The notes under the pieces are model-generated. The model made no database searches and was not told the DNA's origin. It was given only the letters and a program-made list of their open reading frames with translations. This document shows positions 46,220 through 51,663 of a stretch of DNA of 64,000 nt, piece after piece (position 1 is the stretch's first letter; each line of letters starts with the position of its first letter). The position numbers and the translations under genes are program-made. Source of the stretch: a virus. Lineage: Duplodnaviria > Heunggongvirae > Uroviricota > Caudoviricetes. The stretch is taken from the IMG/VR virus record IMGVR_UViG_2737471993_000002; one strand, 5' to 3'.

Positions 46220-49200
46220 CTTCTCACTTGGGGAGTCGGCTCTAAAAGCAGAAAACGCGGTGAAGATTGCCAGAGAAGCTGGCTACACCGCTGTAATTTC
46301 AGCAGATAGCATGAATATTGCGAGCGTTATTCCACTACAACGTGCCGCTGGTGACGACATGGCGGTTATTTGTGGTGTGAAACTAAACATTGTTGATGAT
46401 CCCACATACGAGCACCGGGCTAAACTTGCTAAAGAATCTATGAGATGTATGGAATCATTAGAGCGGGGACGTAACTACTCGTTTACCGCTCTAATTAAAA
46501 ATGAGCAAGGATATCGCGACATCTGCGAACTAATGACGGCGGCCAACACACGAGAACAGTTCTACTTTGTACCGCGTCTCTCGCTCGAACAGTTGGTTTC
46601 TACATATGCCAAAGGCAACATCATCCTGCTTACTTCCGACATCGGTAGCGTGTTCCAACGCAACGATTTTGCAAAAATCATAAGCACACTGATTACAGCG
46701 GGTGGAAAAGACAACTTCTATAGTGTGGTTTATCCGCACCCTACCCCATTCTACGACCAGATTAACGTCCGGGCGATGAAAGTCGCCAGCGCATTGAAAA
46801 TAGAGCCAGTGGCGTTCTATCCCGCTTATTACGAATCGATCGACGATGCAGACATTAAAGACATTGCGCACATGGTTACGAACAACATCAAAATCGACCA
46901 GCCGCATCGTCTGCGTATCCCCCACCAGCGAGATAACGCCGTCAATGGTCGCCGCCATCTCCTTGAGGCGCTTAAAGCCTTCTCCGTTCGCATGGATGTG
47001 CCGGTAACAGCTGCAATGGCCTCAACAACGCAGGATACCATTATCGATGCCTGCACATGGCGCTGGCATGAATTGCCGCCAGCACTGCCAAAGATGGCAG
47101 ACGACGAGCCTGCAACGCTTATGAAACTGGCTGTTGCAGGGCTGCGTAAACGTCTTACCACAAAAGAGTTTGGCTACACACCACCTGCTTCTGAGAACAG
47201 GGTTTATGTTGAGCGGCTAAAGTACGAAATGGACACGCTGACTCGCCTGGGATTTTGTGGTTACTTCCTGATGGTACGCGATCTGATGAATCATAGTCGT
47301 GAAACTGGCATTCCCGTTGGGCCTGGTCGTGGTTCCTCTGCCGGTTCTCTGGTGGCGTGGTGCATAGGCATAACCAACGTCGACCCAATCCGTCACGGTC
47401 TTCTGTTTGAGCGTTTCATCAACCCTGAGCGTCTCGACTTGCCGGATGCGGACTTGGACTTCAGCCAGGCACGTCGCCATGAGGTGATCGAGTATCTGAA
47501 TGAACGCTACGGCGAAGATTACGTTGCGGGTATTCCGAACTTCACCTACCTGGGCGCAGCCTCTGCACTACGTGATACCGCTCGTATTTATGGTGTGGAG
47601 TCCGCAGATATGGCGGTATCAAAAGAACTGAAGAACGTCGAGGATGATAGCCTTCCATTGGAAGAGCTGCGCGAACAACTGGCAAGTCTCGACAAATACG
47701 CAACAAAATATCCTGATGCATTCAATGCAGCCTGCAAGTTACAAAGCCTTATGCGTGGCTTTGGTAGACATGCGGCAGGGATGATCGTAGCAGGTGTTCC
47801 TCTGACAGAACGTACACCGGTTGAGCGCCGTGGTGACGCGCGTTGTATCGCATTTGACAAGCGTTACTGCGAGGCTATGGGCCTAATTAAGCTGGACGTG
47901 CTTGGCCTGGCAACTCTCGATTTGCTCGATAGTGCAAAACGCTACATAAAAGAGAACACAGGTGAAGATATCAATCTTGATGCCATTTCTCTTGAAGATC
48001 GCAAGGTGCTGGATGGTTTTGCTGCTGGGTACACTCAAGGTGTTTTCCAGCTTGAATCAGGCCCAATGCGCAAGCTGCTTAAAGATTTAGGTGGTGGAAT
48101 TGAGCCAATGAGCTTTAAAACGGTCGTCGCTACAACTGCGCTCTTCCGGCCGGGGCCAATTCAATCAGGCATGTTGGATGACTATGTTTCTGTCGCCAAA
48201 GGCTTTATGACGCCGGAATCATTACACCCCGTTCTTGATGAACTTACCGCGGAAACAAATGGCGTGATTCTCTATCAGGAACAGACGATGAACGCGACTC
48301 GATTGCTTGCCGGCTTCACAATGGCTGAAGCTGACGCTGTGCGTTCCGCAATCGGTAAGAAGAACATGGAAAAAATGAAGAGCATGGGCGAGAAGTTCAT
48401 CGTTCAGGCTCAAGCTGGCTGGATAGACGTTGAGCTGGAAGATGGCACTACACAGCGCATTCACCGTGCGGAACATTTTAAATGCGAAGACGGAACTCTG
48501 AAAACTGTCGAAGAGGCACTTGAGCACGGCGCAAAACTACCTATAAACGCAGTACGCGTTACAGCGTCACATCCAGGGCTATCAGAGATGAAAGCGAAGG
48601 AGATCTGGACCGCATTTGAGAAAAACGGAGCCTATCAGTTCAATAAATCACACTCCGTTGCTTATTCTTTAATCAGTTATCAGTCTATGTGGCTAAAGAC
48701 GCACTACCCTGCTGAGTTCTTCGCAGCTGCGCTCACCATTCTGGGCGAGGATAAGCATCAGGGGCTGGTGAAGGATGCGCTGACCTATGGCATTCGCGTA
48801 TTGCCACCAGACGTTAATGTGTCATCTAACCGAATTGAGATCCGCACACTCGAAGACGGCAGTCAGGCACTGTATGCGCCATTCTCTGCTGTGAAAGGCT
48901 GTTCTGAAAATGGTTGTCAGGCAATTATGCGTGCGCGTGAGAAAGTTGGTGGCAAATTCGAGTCAGTGGCACAATTCGATGAAGCGGTCGAGAAGCGTGC
49001 ATGTAACAGTCGTGTACGCGAGTCGCTTCATAAAGTAGGGGCTTTTGCGTCAATTGAGCCAGGCAGTCTGCCAGCAACTGATCCTGAACGACTGCGCGAC
49101 CAGGCTGAGCTGATGGGCAATCTCATCATTGACGCTGTTAAAGCATCACGTCCGTTCGAAATGAATCCTAAGCGTTCTGCCGAAATCAACGTACTTATGA

Positions 49201-49712
49201 CACGTATGGCGGCTGAAATGGGCTTGGGTGAGGAGTTGATACGCCCGACTATTGGTATTAAACCCAAAATCATGATCATTCTGGACAATGCGAACGGCAA
49301 TGACGCTCGTACCGGCTACTTCATGGAGAACGGATACGACGACTTTAAGGCAAAACTACTGACAGTTGGAGATCTGCGCATGGGCGATCTTTATGTCACG
49401 GGTGTTTGTAAGAAGGTTAAGGACAAAGAGAAAGACTATACCAAAGACGAGATAGGCCAGTTCACAGACTTTATGCGGGAAGAAATTAATCTTGTACGAC
49501 CAACCTACATTTTGACGTGTGGTAGTCGTTCAACCGCACTATTTAACAATAAGAGTAAACCATCAGATCTGATTGGTCGTAAGGAGTACTTCCCAGAGCT
49601 TGATGCAACCGTCTTCTACGGATTTAACCCGAATATCCTGTACTTCCGACCGGAAGAAGGAGAGCGACTGGAGGCCATTCTGGCTGATATCGCGGAGACA
49701 ATAAATAAGTAA
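46194..49712 (+). CDS. dnaE: DNA polymerase III alpha subunit (DnaE-like)
   Basis: 1172 aa with DnaE-like catalytic core segments (GLIKLDVLGLATL, ILYQEQTM) and an N-terminal PHP-like region. Confidence 0.8.
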   Translation: MKALMVRTDFSLGESALKAENAVKIAREAGYTAVISADSMNIASVIPLQRAAGDDMAVICGVKLNIVDDPTYEHRAKLAKESMRCMESLERGRNYSFTALIKNEQGYRDICELMTAANTREQFYFVPRLSLEQLVSTYAKGNIILLTSDIGSVFQRNDFAKIISTLITAGGKDNFYSVVYPHPTPFYDQINVRAMKVASALKIEPVAFYPAYYESIDDADIKDIAHMVTNNIKIDQPHRLRIPHQRDNAVNGRRHLLEALKAFSVRMDVPVTAAMASTTQDTIIDACTWRWHELPPALPKMADDEPATLMKLAVAGLRKRLTTKEFGYTPPASENRVYVERLKYEMDTLTRLGFCGYFLMVRDLMNHSRETGIPVGPGRGSSAGSLVAWCIGITNVDPIRHGLLFERFINPERLDLPDADLDFSQARRHEVIEYLNERYGEDYVAGIPNFTYLGAASALRDTARIYGVESADMAVSKELKNVEDDSLPLEELREQLASLDKYATKYPDAFNAACKLQSLMRGFGRHAAGMIVAGVPLTERTPVERRGDARCIAFDKRYCEAMGLIKLDVLGLATLDLLDSAKRYIKENTGEDINLDAISLEDRKVLDGFAAGYTQGVFQLESGPMRKLLKDLGGGIEPMSFKTVVATTALFRPGPIQSGMLDDYVSVAKGFMTPESLHPVLDELTAETNGVILYQEQTMNATRLLAGFTMAEADAVRSAIGKKNMEKMKSMGEKFIVQAQAGWIDVELEDGTTQRIHRAEHFKCEDGTLKTVEEALEHGAKLPINAVRVTASHPGLSEMKAKEIWTAFEKNGAYQFNKSHSVAYSLISYQSMWLKTHYPAEFFAAALTILGEDKHQGLVKDALTYGIRVLPPDVNVSSNRIEIRTLEDGSQALYAPFSAVKGCSENGCQAIMRAREKVGGKFESVAQFDEAVEKRACNSRVRESLHKVGAFASIEPGSLPATDPERLRDQAELMGNLIIDAVKASRPFEMNPKRSAEINVLMTRMAAEMGLGEELIRPTIGIKPKIMIILDNANGNDARTGYFMENGYDDFKAKLLTVGDLRMGDLYVTGVCKKVKDKEKDYTKDEIGQFTDFMREEINLVRPTYILTCGSRSTALFNNKSKPSDLIGRKEYFPELDATVFYGFNPNILYFRPEEGERLEAILADIAETINK

Positions 49713-49717
49713 TAAAG

Positions 49718-49742
49718 AAAACCCGCCTGTTGGCGGGTTTAT
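49718..49742 (+). terminator. rho-independent terminator
   Basis: CCCGCC-TGTT-GGCGGG hairpin followed by TTTAT. Confidence 0.65.
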
Positions 49743-50015
49743 AAAGAATTATGGCGCTTGTTGAGGAAGTCACTCCTCTTACGCACTTTGTTTTGCCATG
49801 CCGGCAGTTAGCTTCTGCCTTTGACTATTCATGCGGCAACCCCGCATTTCGCCACAATGGGCAATTCACTTTTATGGAATAAACTGGCCGTTGTGTCGAT
49901 TTAATTAGCATGGCCTTACCATGCTAATTTATTCAACTTGTACAATCCTACAAATCTATCCACTCAGGCTTACACCGTCTTCGTTATTGTAGAAATGAGG
50001 ATCATCAGCGTTGAA

Positions 50016-50231
50016 TCAGCTTAGAGCAACGACATTTGCTGCTGCTGGGCCTTTAGCCCCATTCTCGATAGAGAATTCGACCTGCTGGCCTTCTTCCAAA
50101 GTGCGGAAATTATTACTCTGAATTGCCGAAAAATGTACAAAAACATCTTTACTGCCATCAGCAGGAGAAATAAAGCCAAAGCCTTTATCAGAGTTAAACC
50201 ATTTTACTAAACCAGTCATTTTATTAGACAT
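50016..50231 (-). CDS. cold-shock protein (CspA family)
   Basis: [21 protein letters not shown]...VFVHFSAI contains the RNP1/RNP2-type cold-shock motifs; the track ORF is N-terminally extended. Confidence 0.8.
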
Positions 50232-50560
50232 AGATATTACCTTCTTAATTTTGTGAGCCACATAGTGCGGCGAGAATTTGATCTGTATAGATTGGGACTT
50301 ACTTAGGCACTTAAGGAGGAGACTCACGAAGAAGGGAAATCAGAAGATAACACTGAACTGAGACTGCTTTACTAAAACTGCTTACATAAGGTCTGTCTTG
50401 CAAACCAACGATGCTATTAACGCATACCCCTTCTTTTCATGCAACCTTTATTTTTCAAAGATAACTAATTTTTGTCACCATTGGTTTAGTAAACGTTAAC
50501 GAACCAGACGATGCCAGACACCTTTACAGAGAACAGATGCCCGCCAATTGGCGGGCATCA

Positions 50561-51124
50561 TTATGCGCATTTCGCAATATCTTTGCGGCGTTTAATCAGT
50601 TTCTCCGCAATTTGCTCTATTTCGTTGAAATCTTTCGAGACGCTGTTTCGAAGCGCCAGATTCCATTTACTCAAAGTTCGGGCATTTTGGACAATTTGAT
50701 CGCCCTCTTTAAGTCGTCCGTTATTCATGAGCCATTCAGCCACATCAGCCCAATCCCAGAGAGGAGACTGGCCTTTTATGCGTTGTACAGGGCAAGGGAA
50801 GTCGCCGCTTCCGCGCTTACCGTCTTTGAGCAACGCCACCGCCTGGCGAGACAGGTCTGTCAGTTCCGCGATATCGCTTAAGCCCACAAGAGCCGAGTCG
50901 ACGGATTCAACAATTGCACCGATACCGGCTGATTCAATATTGTCGACCGCAGATGCGATAGCTGCATCAAGTGATTGTGCTTCGCGGTCAAATTCTACAT
51001 AGACGGAGTTTCCATATGCGCAAATTAGCGCATCGTCACAGCCGTTTTGGTACAGCGCGTCTTCCAGTCCTTCCGTCTCATACGATACGCCTGAGAGCGT
51101 CAGAGTGAAGTTATAAAGCGCCAT
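50561..51124 (-). CDS. putative antitoxin-like DNA-binding protein (HicB-like N-terminus plus excisionase/AlpA-type HTH)
   Basis: ATG at 51124 preceded by AGGAAA. C-terminal segment IAELTDLSRQAVALL...FPCP...W.WADVAEW fits an AlpA/excisionase-like HTH. N-terminal domain assignment is tentative. Confidence 0.3.
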   Translation of the reverse strand: MALYNFTLTLSGVSYETEGLEDALYQNGCDDALICAYGNSVYVEFDREAQSLDAAIASAVDNIESAGIGAIVESVDSALVGLSDIAELTDLSRQAVALLKDGKRGSGDFPCPVQRIKGQSPLWDWADVAEWLMNNGRLKEGDQIVQNARTLSKWNLALRNSVSKDFNEIEQIAEKLIKRRKDIAKCA

Positions 51125-51184
51125 AGTTTTCCTTTGAAGATAGTTGGACAGTTTCTGCAAAAGGCGGCTAATGCCGCCTTGAAA

Positions 51185-51409
51185 TCATTTACAACGATCA
51201 ACCATTCGTTTGATCTGTTTGGCATGGTTTTCGGGATTACCCGGAGTCGACCATACGCTCATTTGGTGAGTTTTGTGTTCACCTTCTGGATTACCGCATC
51301 GCAGTCTGCAAAAACAATGTGCAGCACCACCAGCTGCTACCCAGATCCAGCCTTTACTTAATGCATAGTCAATGGCTGCTTGAATATGCTTATTCGGATG
51401 TTGCTTCAT
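51185..51409 (-). CDS. putative HicA-like small toxin
   Basis: 74 aa, GGAGG site upstream. Loose resemblance to the HicA pattern (GW...GGAAHCF...G....H......P.N...IKRMV); low confidence. Confidence 0.3.
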   Translation of the reverse strand: MKQHPNKHIQAAIDYALSKGWIWVAAGGAAHCFCRLRCGNPEGEHKTHQMSVWSTPGNPENHAKQIKRMVDRCK

Positions 51410-51663
51410 TCGCCTCCGATAATAGTATTCTATTCACAGTGTTGACATCTGTCAACGGCGACTGAATTTCATCCGTTCATGCCACACCCCCATCCATCTC
51501 ATGTATGTGACCTAAAGATGGTCAGCACAGCTTACCAAAATAAGACAACTAATTATCTTCGGTGATCTCAATATTTTCCCCTGAACAAAGTTGACATGAC
51601 GCCATAAACCCGTTCTCTGTTTGATATAATTGATACAGATTTTATAAGTAGGAACCTATTAGA

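Follow-up and report, generated by a model that had tools for sequence, protein, structure and literature searches.

A probable autoregulated toxin-antitoxin module of an SSU5-like phage-plasmid that is not canonical HicAB

What kind of system is formed by the two adjacent genes at positions 50,561 to 51,409 of the virus record IMGVR_UViG_2737471993_000002, of which a stretch of 64,000 nucleotides (the window, to which all coordinates refer) was analyzed? Both genes, here called A and B, lie on the minus strand, and an earlier note made from the sequence had proposed that they are a HicA/HicB-like toxin-antitoxin pair. We favor, with moderate confidence, the reading that A and B are a self-regulating gene pair of the type II toxin-antitoxin kind, a lysogeny-expressed 'moron' of an SSU5-like phage-plasmid. 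The module is not canonical HicAB, in that B is unrelated to HicB and A is outside the Pfam HicA family.

The A-B region is 99.7% identical to that of Escherichia phage Cyrano (OV696614), which is the SSU5-like phage-plasmid pLF82 of Escherichia coli LF82, and many E. coli plasmids of ~110 kb match it at 99.9% identity. The HicA/HicB idea is not new, since the same labels are already found in ENA record OV696614, where CYRAN_51 is a 'HicA toxin protein' and CYRAN_50 a 'putative antitoxin HicB', and in a study of the LF82 lysogen in which both genes are listed as expressed, A at 30x and B at 14x the local background, and in which the name 'HicA-HicB toxin pair' was given on expression alone (PMC9928086). 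The RefSeq/GenBank plasmid records name A 'hypothetical protein' and B 'DNA-binding protein'. Given what follows, the label 'HicA/HicB' of the ENA record overstates the case and the RefSeq naming understates it, and B should not be called HicB.

Gene A (51185..51409, minus strand) is an open reading frame (ORF) for a basic protein of 74 aa, a putative HicA-like toxin, and the good GGAGG Shine-Dalgarno site that had been noticed is indeed present at 51413..51417, 3 nt before the ATG, and is kept in enterobacterial loci. Gene B (50561..51124, minus strand) is the 187-aa ORF that had been described. The 24-nt gap reported between A and this protein belongs in fact to a 199-aa version of B in a program-made ORF list, which begins at a TTG at 51160. 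That start was rejected: all homologues of B begin at the equivalent of the M-A-L-Y-N-F at 51124, so that the spacer is 60 nt, and the extra codons from the TTG onward would lie across the intergenic hairpin described below. Neither gene is a chance ORF, since relatives of A fall into at least 717 clusters at 50% identity, B has 273 matches, and the two genes are neighbors in 79 of 80 loci.

These 80 genome loci, all of them retrieved as encoding an A relative, come from Enterobacterales, Pasteurellaceae, Acinetobacter and other Moraxellaceae, Neisseriaceae, Planctomycetota, Latescibacterota, Anaerolineae and Balneolales. In all but one of them a B homologue lies directly downstream of A on the same strand, frequently with a 4-bp overlap of the two genes. 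The partner protein has three sizes: ~185 aa in Enterobacterales (N-domain, helix-turn-helix [HTH] and two C-terminal helices), ~148 aa in Pasteurellaceae, Acinetobacter and Neisseriaceae (N-domain and HTH), and ~82–87 aa in Planctomycetota and other phyla (Latescibacterota, Anaerolineae), where it is the N-domain only. The invariant core is therefore A together with the first ~75 residues of B. The module is patchy in its distribution, and occurs on phage-plasmids, other plasmids and chromosomes: A is present on 299 PLSDB plasmids, mostly non-mobilizable, of 95–120 kb and including Yersinia pestis plasmids; the SSU5-like Enterobacter plasmids have the pair in the same slot, between gp32/UvsY-like genes and dnaE, and this syntenic slot is shared by E. 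coli, Enterobacter and Y. pestis pMT1-type phage-plasmids; on the Providencia stuartii chromosome it is a stand-alone pair amid housekeeping genes. One Pirellulales metagenome-assembled genome (MAG; L066, 1235..2451) has tandem A-B pairs, with A at 1235–1462 and at 1959–2180, each followed by an ORF for a B N-domain, an arrangement that points to a local duplication of the module in some Planctomycetota.

The AlphaFold2 (AF2) model of A, with a predicted local distance difference test score (pLDDT) of 89.6, consists of a helix (residues 7–18), strands at 22–25 and 32–37, a short helix, a strand at 49–53 and a final helix (59–72). As modeled, this alpha-beta-beta-beta-alpha fold would be that of the HicA mRNA interferases, a likeness by fold only. 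Conservation was counted in 127 diverse relatives. H4 is invariant (127), and H31 (122), K7 (113), T55 (124), P56 (126) and H62 (105) are kept in nearly as many or in most; H31 stands directly before strand 2 (E32-37) in the context G-x-S-x-H or G-H. A second set of residues comprises putative metal ligands, with C38 and C73 each kept in 125 of the relatives and position 48 being Cys in 102 and His in 17. This interchange of Cys and His at position 48 argues for a metal site in A, probably zinc, and the family consensus runs on as C-x-H past position 73. To judge from these patterns, a Cys/His zinc clip probably ties the loop between strands 2 and 3 to the C-terminus.

The AF2 model of B (pLDDT 91) resolves a beta-alpha-beta-beta-alpha-beta unit in residues 1–75, a helix-helix-wing-helix unit at ~82–134, and helices at 143–162 and 166–186. 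We accordingly divide the protein into an N-terminal ferredoxin-like domain (aa 1–78; 50891..51124, minus strand), putatively toxin-neutralizing by its charge and conservation; a central AlpA/excisionase-like winged HTH of the MerR superfamily (aa 79–140; 50705..50890, minus strand), putatively operator-binding and assigned from PHROGs, PDB and Pfam comparisons; and a C-terminal part of two long helices in the AF2 model (aa 141–187, with the stop codon; 50561..50704, minus strand). The HTH had been placed at the C-terminus of the protein; it is central (~aa 79–135), and the two long helices (aa 143–186) come after it. These helices, possibly a dimerization module, are found only in B of the Enterobacterales type; the ~148-aa B of Pasteurellaceae, Acinetobacter and Neisseriaceae lacks them.

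The N-domain of B is very acidic (pI 4.05, net charge –13.5), and A is basic (pI 9.5, net charge +6). Residues F6, D22, G28, C29, D31, F45, R47, A55 and A59 of the N-domain are kept across phyla. Small proteins with the ferredoxin fold (beta-alpha-beta-beta-alpha-beta) are familiar from toxin-antitoxin or defense modules, as in the type V antitoxin GhoS and in Cas2/VapD. HicB, by contrast, is defined by an N-terminal partial RNase H fold of the order beta-beta-beta-alpha-beta (PMC10865869), which B does not have, its N-domain being beta-alpha-beta-beta-alpha-beta. The part of the earlier proposal that made B HicB-like must therefore be given up. Nothing significant was found for B in Pfam and NCBIfam; HicB/UPF0150 families gave no match to B in either collection and none to 51 relatives at E<=10, and no HicB emerged from the profile search of PDB sequences. 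The DNA-binding domain of B is likewise neither RHH nor Xre-HTH; it is central and AlpA/excisionase-like.

The AlpA/excisionase likeness of the HTH, also part of the earlier description, stands as a likeness, with matches that are below threshold in PHROGs, PDB (8c3t) and Pfam Phage_AlpA. Whole B belongs with phrog_2620, 'excisionase and transcriptional regulator' (E=2e-105), and its central stretch matches phrog_66 (E=2e-4) and phrog_2790 (E=1e-3), which are both labeled in the same way. The PDB search with the central domain gave AlpA 8c3t_A at E=0.71 with the FP.P..W.W.V.EW motif aligned, and Pfam Phage_AlpA was reached below threshold by 11 of 51 B relatives (best E=0.025). In its central helix-helix-wing-helix and its F-P-x-P ... 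W-x-W-x-x-V-x-x-W motif B resembles the AlpA/Xis-type regulators (PDB 8c3t); unlike them, it is extended by a ferredoxin-like domain at the N-terminus and by helices at the C-terminus, stands in no integrase context, and matches them only at sub-threshold scores. The three PHROGs labels and the weak AlpA match would also suit B as an excisionase or recombination directionality factor, with A as its accessory protein. We regard this as scarcely credible: the element that carries the pair is replicated as a plasmid, neither annotation nor gene calling shows an integrase within 6–8 kb of the pair in the Cyrano, Enterobacter plasmid and Providencia loci, the sole conserved DNA motif is a palindrome at the pair's own promoter, and versions of B exist that have no HTH.

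Could the pair nonetheless be a canonical HicA/HicB, with A a true HicA mRNA interferase and B a HicB that covers the active site by a partial RNase H domain and represses through a DNA-binding domain? Solved HicAB systems for comparison are those of E. coli K-12 (PDB 6hpb), Streptococcus pneumoniae (5yrz), Burkholderia pseudomallei (6g26) and Y. pestis (HicA3B3, 4p78). The A-B pair is like them in that a toxin-like gene stands first, upstream of its partner; in a conserved His at the start of strand 2 as modeled (H31 in A), which may correspond to the catalytic His of the HicA G-S/T-x-H motif (H23 in E. coli HicA); in a partner made of an N-domain, putatively toxin-facing in B, and a DNA-binding domain, with versions in existence that have no DNA-binding domain; and in probable autorepression at an operator over the promoter. 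The deposited labels of the 99.7%-identical CYRAN_51 and CYRAN_50 also speak for this reading, and HicA families are very divergent. Unlike HicA (~58–60 aa), A is longer, at 74 aa, and two of its features, the N-terminal H-P-N-K motif, which is invariant, and the Cys/His clip that probably holds zinc, are not seen in the E. coli-type HicA alignment or in the HicA of plasmid pHNSHP45. It is also outside Pfam HicA_toxin (PF07927), for which A gave no match at E<=1, and has no Foldseek link to HicA; NCBIfam gave no HicA match, and nothing significant was found for A in Pfam and NCBIfam as a whole. PHROGs places A in phrog_5923 (E=3e-49), a family with no function assigned. B departs from HicB in both of its domains, the N-domain being ferredoxin-like and the DNA-binding domain an AlpA-type winged helix rather than RHH or Xre-HTH, and neither protein, nor any of the relatives scanned, has a HicA/HicB match in Pfam or NCBIfam. 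A canonical HicAB is thus, in our judgement, highly improbable.

Profile comparison of A with HicA itself is a blunt instrument. The E. coli-type HicA alignment is narrow (64–83% identity), and the profile made from it does not detect other solved HicAs, so that the negative A-HicA profile result is weak; this blindness also counts in favor of a canonical HicA. With hhalign, A and E. coli-type HicA gave a local match of 17–19 columns only (probability 91% with the trimmed, 87% with the untrimmed alignment), which pairs the A N-terminal 'M.RHPNKeIe.AI.YA' with the HicA 'MPRHP..EIKEPLRKAI'. In residue terms, A 1–17 (window 51398..51409; M-x-R-H-P-N-K-e-I and helix 1) align with M-P-R-H-P-x-x-E-I at residues ~35–51 of HicA, a segment that in E. 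coli-type HicA sits at the junction of strand 3 and helix 2, and the same N-terminal motif also aligns with V-P-H-P-K-K-D-L of the pHNSHP45 HicA. The likeness may reflect a motif common to both, for helix capping or the active site, or it may be due to convergence. When PDB sequences were searched with A and B, as single sequences and as profiles, only noise was returned (RuBisCO small chain, lectins).

Upstream of A lies the top promoter-like site of the region, a sigma-70-type promoter for the A-B operon by consensus match (51427..51455, minus strand), which agrees with 11 of 12 consensus positions: –35 TTGACA (51455..51450), a 17-nt spacer and –10 TAGAAT (51432..51427). Transcription of the operon would be expected to start here, and a similar layout, TTGAC(A/G) ... 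(A)TAGAAT, is found upstream of A in enterobacterial loci. Over the –35 box there is a perfect palindrome, GTTGAC-AGAT-GTCAAC (51441..51456, on no particular strand), whose left arm holds the –35 hexamer and which occurs in a single copy in the 64-kb window. We take it as a candidate operator from its footprint across loci. Searching the 80 loci with the pattern GTT[G/T]AC-N4-GT[C/A]AAC, the palindrome was found in 45 of the 52 loci with an HTH-bearing B, 43–57 bp upstream of the A start codon (in one at 69 bp), and five of the remaining seven have a copy with one mismatch. It was found in none of the 27 loci with an HTH-less B, and elsewhere in the 610 kb of locus flanks there was no copy. 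This is a strong phylogenetic footprint, and it points to the palindrome as the operator to which the HTH of B would bind.

Between the two genes there is also a predicted hairpin that is conserved in position. At 51161..51180 (minus strand) we read from the sequence a GC-rich stem-loop, AAGGCGGC-ATTA-GCCGCCTT, followed by TT, which is a candidate for an attenuator or a leaky internal terminator. For the 60-nt spacer the folding energy is –16.1 kcal/mol (z = –3.0 vs shuffles), and most of the 22 loci with spacers of 45–90 nt have a GC-rich hairpin in the same place, of varying sequence (median z –2.4); lineages without the intergenic hairpin have genes that overlap by 4 bp. As a leaky terminator the hairpin would probably set the A:B ratio, and in LF82 A transcripts are twice as abundant as B transcripts (levels from PMC9928086), which is consistent with this. 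There is a close precedent in the canonical hicAB of the IncI2 plasmid pHNSHP45 (p45), where an intergenic GC hairpin with a UUU tract leads to ~10-fold more toxin than antitoxin mRNA, where the hairpin improves plasmid competition, and where a sister subfamily with overlapping ORFs has no hairpin (PMC11878559). The A-B pair shares with this HicA(T)B system, with its internal 'noncanonical intrinsic terminator' (PMC11878559), the plasmid-borne setting, the GC-rich hairpin and short U tract between the genes, the overlapping ORFs of sister lineages without the hairpin, and an excess of toxin or toxin-like mRNA (30x vs 14x background in Cyrano; ~10:1 in p45, PMC11878559). It differs in its proteins: those of p45 are by NCBI annotation canonical HicA (60 aa) and HicB (145 aa), and p45 HicA has no significant similarity to A (hhalign probability 1.8%, the HP.K motif only). 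The function of the hairpin was demonstrated in p45 (PMC11878559) and is one that we infer for A-B.

The pattern of gene decay across the loci is one-sided. In five of them (L017, L054, L058, L079 and L042) A has been inactivated by nonsense or frameshift mutation beside an intact B, and in none of the 80 does an intact A stand next to a disrupted B or lack a B altogether; in a Pectobacterium sp. (L073) both genes have decayed. The sample for this asymmetry is small, and since the loci were retrieved through A, the asymmetry is not an artefact of sampling. Of the loci with a decayed A, L017, L054 and L058 are from Providencia spp., L079 is a Planctomycetia MAG and L042 a Cardiobacteriaceae MAG, and the three Providencia lesions are independent, W53 having become a stop in L017 and different frameshifts having occurred in L054 and L058.

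The same observations bear on the main rival to a toxin-antitoxin module, namely a non-toxic regulatory pair, in which B would be a transcription factor that senses a ligand or partner and A a small zinc-binding co-repressor or anti-repressor, the two controlling themselves or a small regulon. The ferredoxin-like N-domain of B is similar to domains with which AsnC/Lrp and ACT proteins sense ligands; a structural zinc site is probable in A, whose sequence matches no RNase family significantly; the operator is evident; and more A than B mRNA is unusual for classical type II systems. That last point is blunted by the hicAB precedent for a toxin-biased transcript ratio (PMC11878559). It speaks against this rival that Planctomycetota and other phyla have A and the B N-domain only, with no DNA-binding domain and no palindrome, so that the function that is conserved cannot be control of transcription. 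Nor is there any sign of a regulon, given that the palindrome occurs once in the window and nowhere else in the 610 kb of flanks. The one-sided inactivation (A lost and B kept in five loci, the reverse in none) and the extreme pairing of a basic with an acidic protein, which fits neutralization, also argue against a regulatory pair, and we consider it unlikely.

The toxin-antitoxin reading is favored, then, by the conserved pairing, the matches of both genes to PADLOC PDC-M06A/B (given below), the complementary charges, the mobile and patchy spread, the expression in the lysogen, the autoregulation-like promoter, the asymmetric decay and the positioned intergenic hairpin. The earlier argument from gene order, sizes and strand is borne out in an indirect way, through the tight pairing, the co-occurrence of HTH and palindrome, the charges and the decay of A. 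That note had also counted the lack of a profile hit to HicA/HicB or any toxin-antitoxin family among the findings that would speak against it, and, taken literally, there is no such hit in Pfam, NCBIfam or PDB sequence profiles; despite the absent matches, the structural and comparative evidence keeps the toxin-antitoxin reading most likely.

Several observations nonetheless weigh against it. The resemblance of the 74-aa protein to HicA, which had been called loose, may hold for the fold and fails for the sequence: when 45 close and 127 diverse A relatives were compared with Pfam HicA_toxin (PF07927) at E<=10, none of the 172 matched, and a Foldseek search of A against the PDB gave no significant match and no HicA. 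An hhalign alignment that is in register with the fold, pairing GW with G, H31 with H23 and TPRnP with MPRHP, is not significant, and the better-scoring match of 17–19 columns does not keep to the register of the fold superposition. A could be a small protein with no enzymatic activity in which every invariant His and Cys serves to bind metal, and a single site formed by H4, K7, H31 and H62 is a placement drawn from secondary structure only. For B, the N-domain fold is typical of small-molecule-sensing regulatory domains (ACT, RAM), and the correlation of HTH and palindrome is confounded by phylogeny, as the HTH-less B proteins are all from other phyla or lineages.

Under the toxin-antitoxin reading the module would work as follows. 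The strong sigma-70 promoter, which like the gene order is observed, would give a bicistronic A-B mRNA. Free A would bind and cleave RNA and so arrest growth; in our active-site model the invariant His before strand 2 would act as the catalytic His of HicA does, with a second invariant His/Lys pair at the N-terminus. The acidic ferredoxin-like N-domain of B, which is conserved wherever A occurs, would neutralize A. In proteobacterial B the AlpA-like winged HTH would bind GTTGAC-N4-GTCAAC over the –35 box and repress the operon, and in Enterobacterales the GC-rich intergenic hairpin would, as a leaky terminator, probably raise the A:B transcript ratio. A would then be freed when the plasmid-prophage is lost or when an infecting phage shuts off host transcription, and freed A may lead to post-segregational killing, plasmid competition or abortive infection.

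Which of these outcomes matters in nature is where an anti-phage reading comes in. By PADLOC both genes match the phage defence candidate (PDC) PDC-M06, the same two families in the same order: A matches PDC-M06A at E=1.2e-19 (PDLC04383), as well as five more PDC-M06A models, and B matches PDC-M06B at E=1.3e-32 (PDLC04388). The pair may thus be a defense system first, acting by abortive infection, so that the phage-plasmid excludes competing phages rather than stabilizing the plasmid. In keeping with this, the PDC families are defined by members embedded in BREX, DISARM or type I restriction-modification (RM) loci (Payne et al., bioRxiv 10.1101/2024.01.29.577857), HicA-domain modules are often found in defense islands (PMC10865869), and the genes are expressed in the lysogen (PMC9928086). 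All 145 PDCs are, however, by the source paper's own statement 'phage defence candidates' without a functional assay (Payne et al., bioRxiv 10.1101/2024.01.29.577857); no function, fold or mechanism was found for PDC-M06, as M06 is not mentioned in the main text of that preprint and a full-text literature search for 'PDC-M06' returned no paper. The Providencia chromosomal pair, moreover, lies amid housekeeping genes and not inside a defense system. We treat defense as the first role as possible, if doubtful; it differs from the toxin-antitoxin reading in biological role only, and not in mechanism.

In two P. stuartii loci (L086/L087) a strain-variable region lies ~5–8 kb upstream of the pair, flanking a conserved block from alanine racemase to A-B. 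In one strain it carries a BsuBI/PstI-type restriction enzyme and an Eco57I-type methylase/enzyme, and in another an RVT_1 reverse transcriptase beside an Ogr/Delta gene; it looks like a nearby defense or mobile-element hotspot.

A more specific form of the toxin-antitoxin reading, which we put forward tentatively, is that A and B found a distinct and widespread type II toxin-antitoxin or defense family, in which a zinc-clipped RNase of the HicA fold, with a His/Lys/His active site of its own (H4, K7, H31), would be neutralized by a ferredoxin-like domain where HicB uses a partial RNase H domain; the AlpA-type domain and the internal attenuator hairpin would then be lineage-specific add-ons. 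The survey of 14 HicA contexts (PMC10865869) does not contain the words ferredoxin, AlpA or zinc, and if the distinct-family reading is true, the pair would be a fifteenth such context and this the first mechanistic assignment for PDC-M06. If A is indeed toxic, a HicA-type fold can pair with a structurally unrelated neutralizing domain, which would provide a mechanism for PDC-M06. Relative to the earlier labels, what is new here is a partner that is not a HicB, a probable zinc clip, a conserved candidate operator and a hairpin that is a candidate attenuator, and the predicted operator and intergenic hairpin are directly testable regulatory elements. SSU5-type phage-plasmids, which include relatives of Y. 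pestis pMT1 and many plasmids of clinical Enterobacteriaceae, keep the pair in the same slot, and it likely helps them to persist stably, to compete with other plasmids or to exclude phages. Small addiction or defense modules on mobile elements are a very familiar class, and to that extent the general surprise is small.

The operon appears to end directly after B. A terminator-like hairpin, GATGCCCGCC-AATT-GGCGGGCATC, with a 10-bp stem of which eight pairs are GC, lies at 50536..50559 (minus strand) right after the B stop codon, and its T tract is weak (TGTTCTCTGT). Beyond it is the cold-shock gene (csp, 50016..50231, minus strand), which had been pointed out as an adjacent gene in the same orientation. 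It does belong to the CspA family (Pfam CSD, E=1.4e-33; NCBIfam CspG, 146.6 bits), but it forms a transcription unit of its own: a complete thermoregulator of the cspA-type 5′ untranslated region precedes it (Rfam RF01766, 185.7 bits, E=8e-51; 49991..50409, minus strand), its mRNA leader starts at ~50409, downstream of the post-B hairpin, and that hairpin (50559..50536) stands between the two units. Membership of csp in the module as a third component was rejected on account of this leader and of an unrelated 214-aa ORF that occupies the slot in the Enterobacter relatives. This gene is a moron in its own right, in a slot that varies between related plasmids. It is not annotated in the Cyrano ENA record, and the RefSeq plasmids call it cspG.

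On the far side of csp, between it and the convergent dnaE (which ends at 49712), is a strong hairpin, AAACCCGCC-AACA-GGCGGGTTT, with a T-rich tail (49719..49740, minus strand), which probably terminates transcription in both directions; Rfam gives a weak, partial sroH-like match at the same position (17.7 bits), which is not significant. The window has a single intact dnaE of 1172 aa (46194..49712), unlike the version in SSU5-like Enterobacter plasmids (L083–L085), where the DnaE-like polymerase is split into 787 aa and 389 aa by a gene for a 231-aa NUMOD4/HNH_3 homing endonuclease. The RecA homologue of these elements (780 aa) contains Intein_splicing and LAGLIDADG domains.

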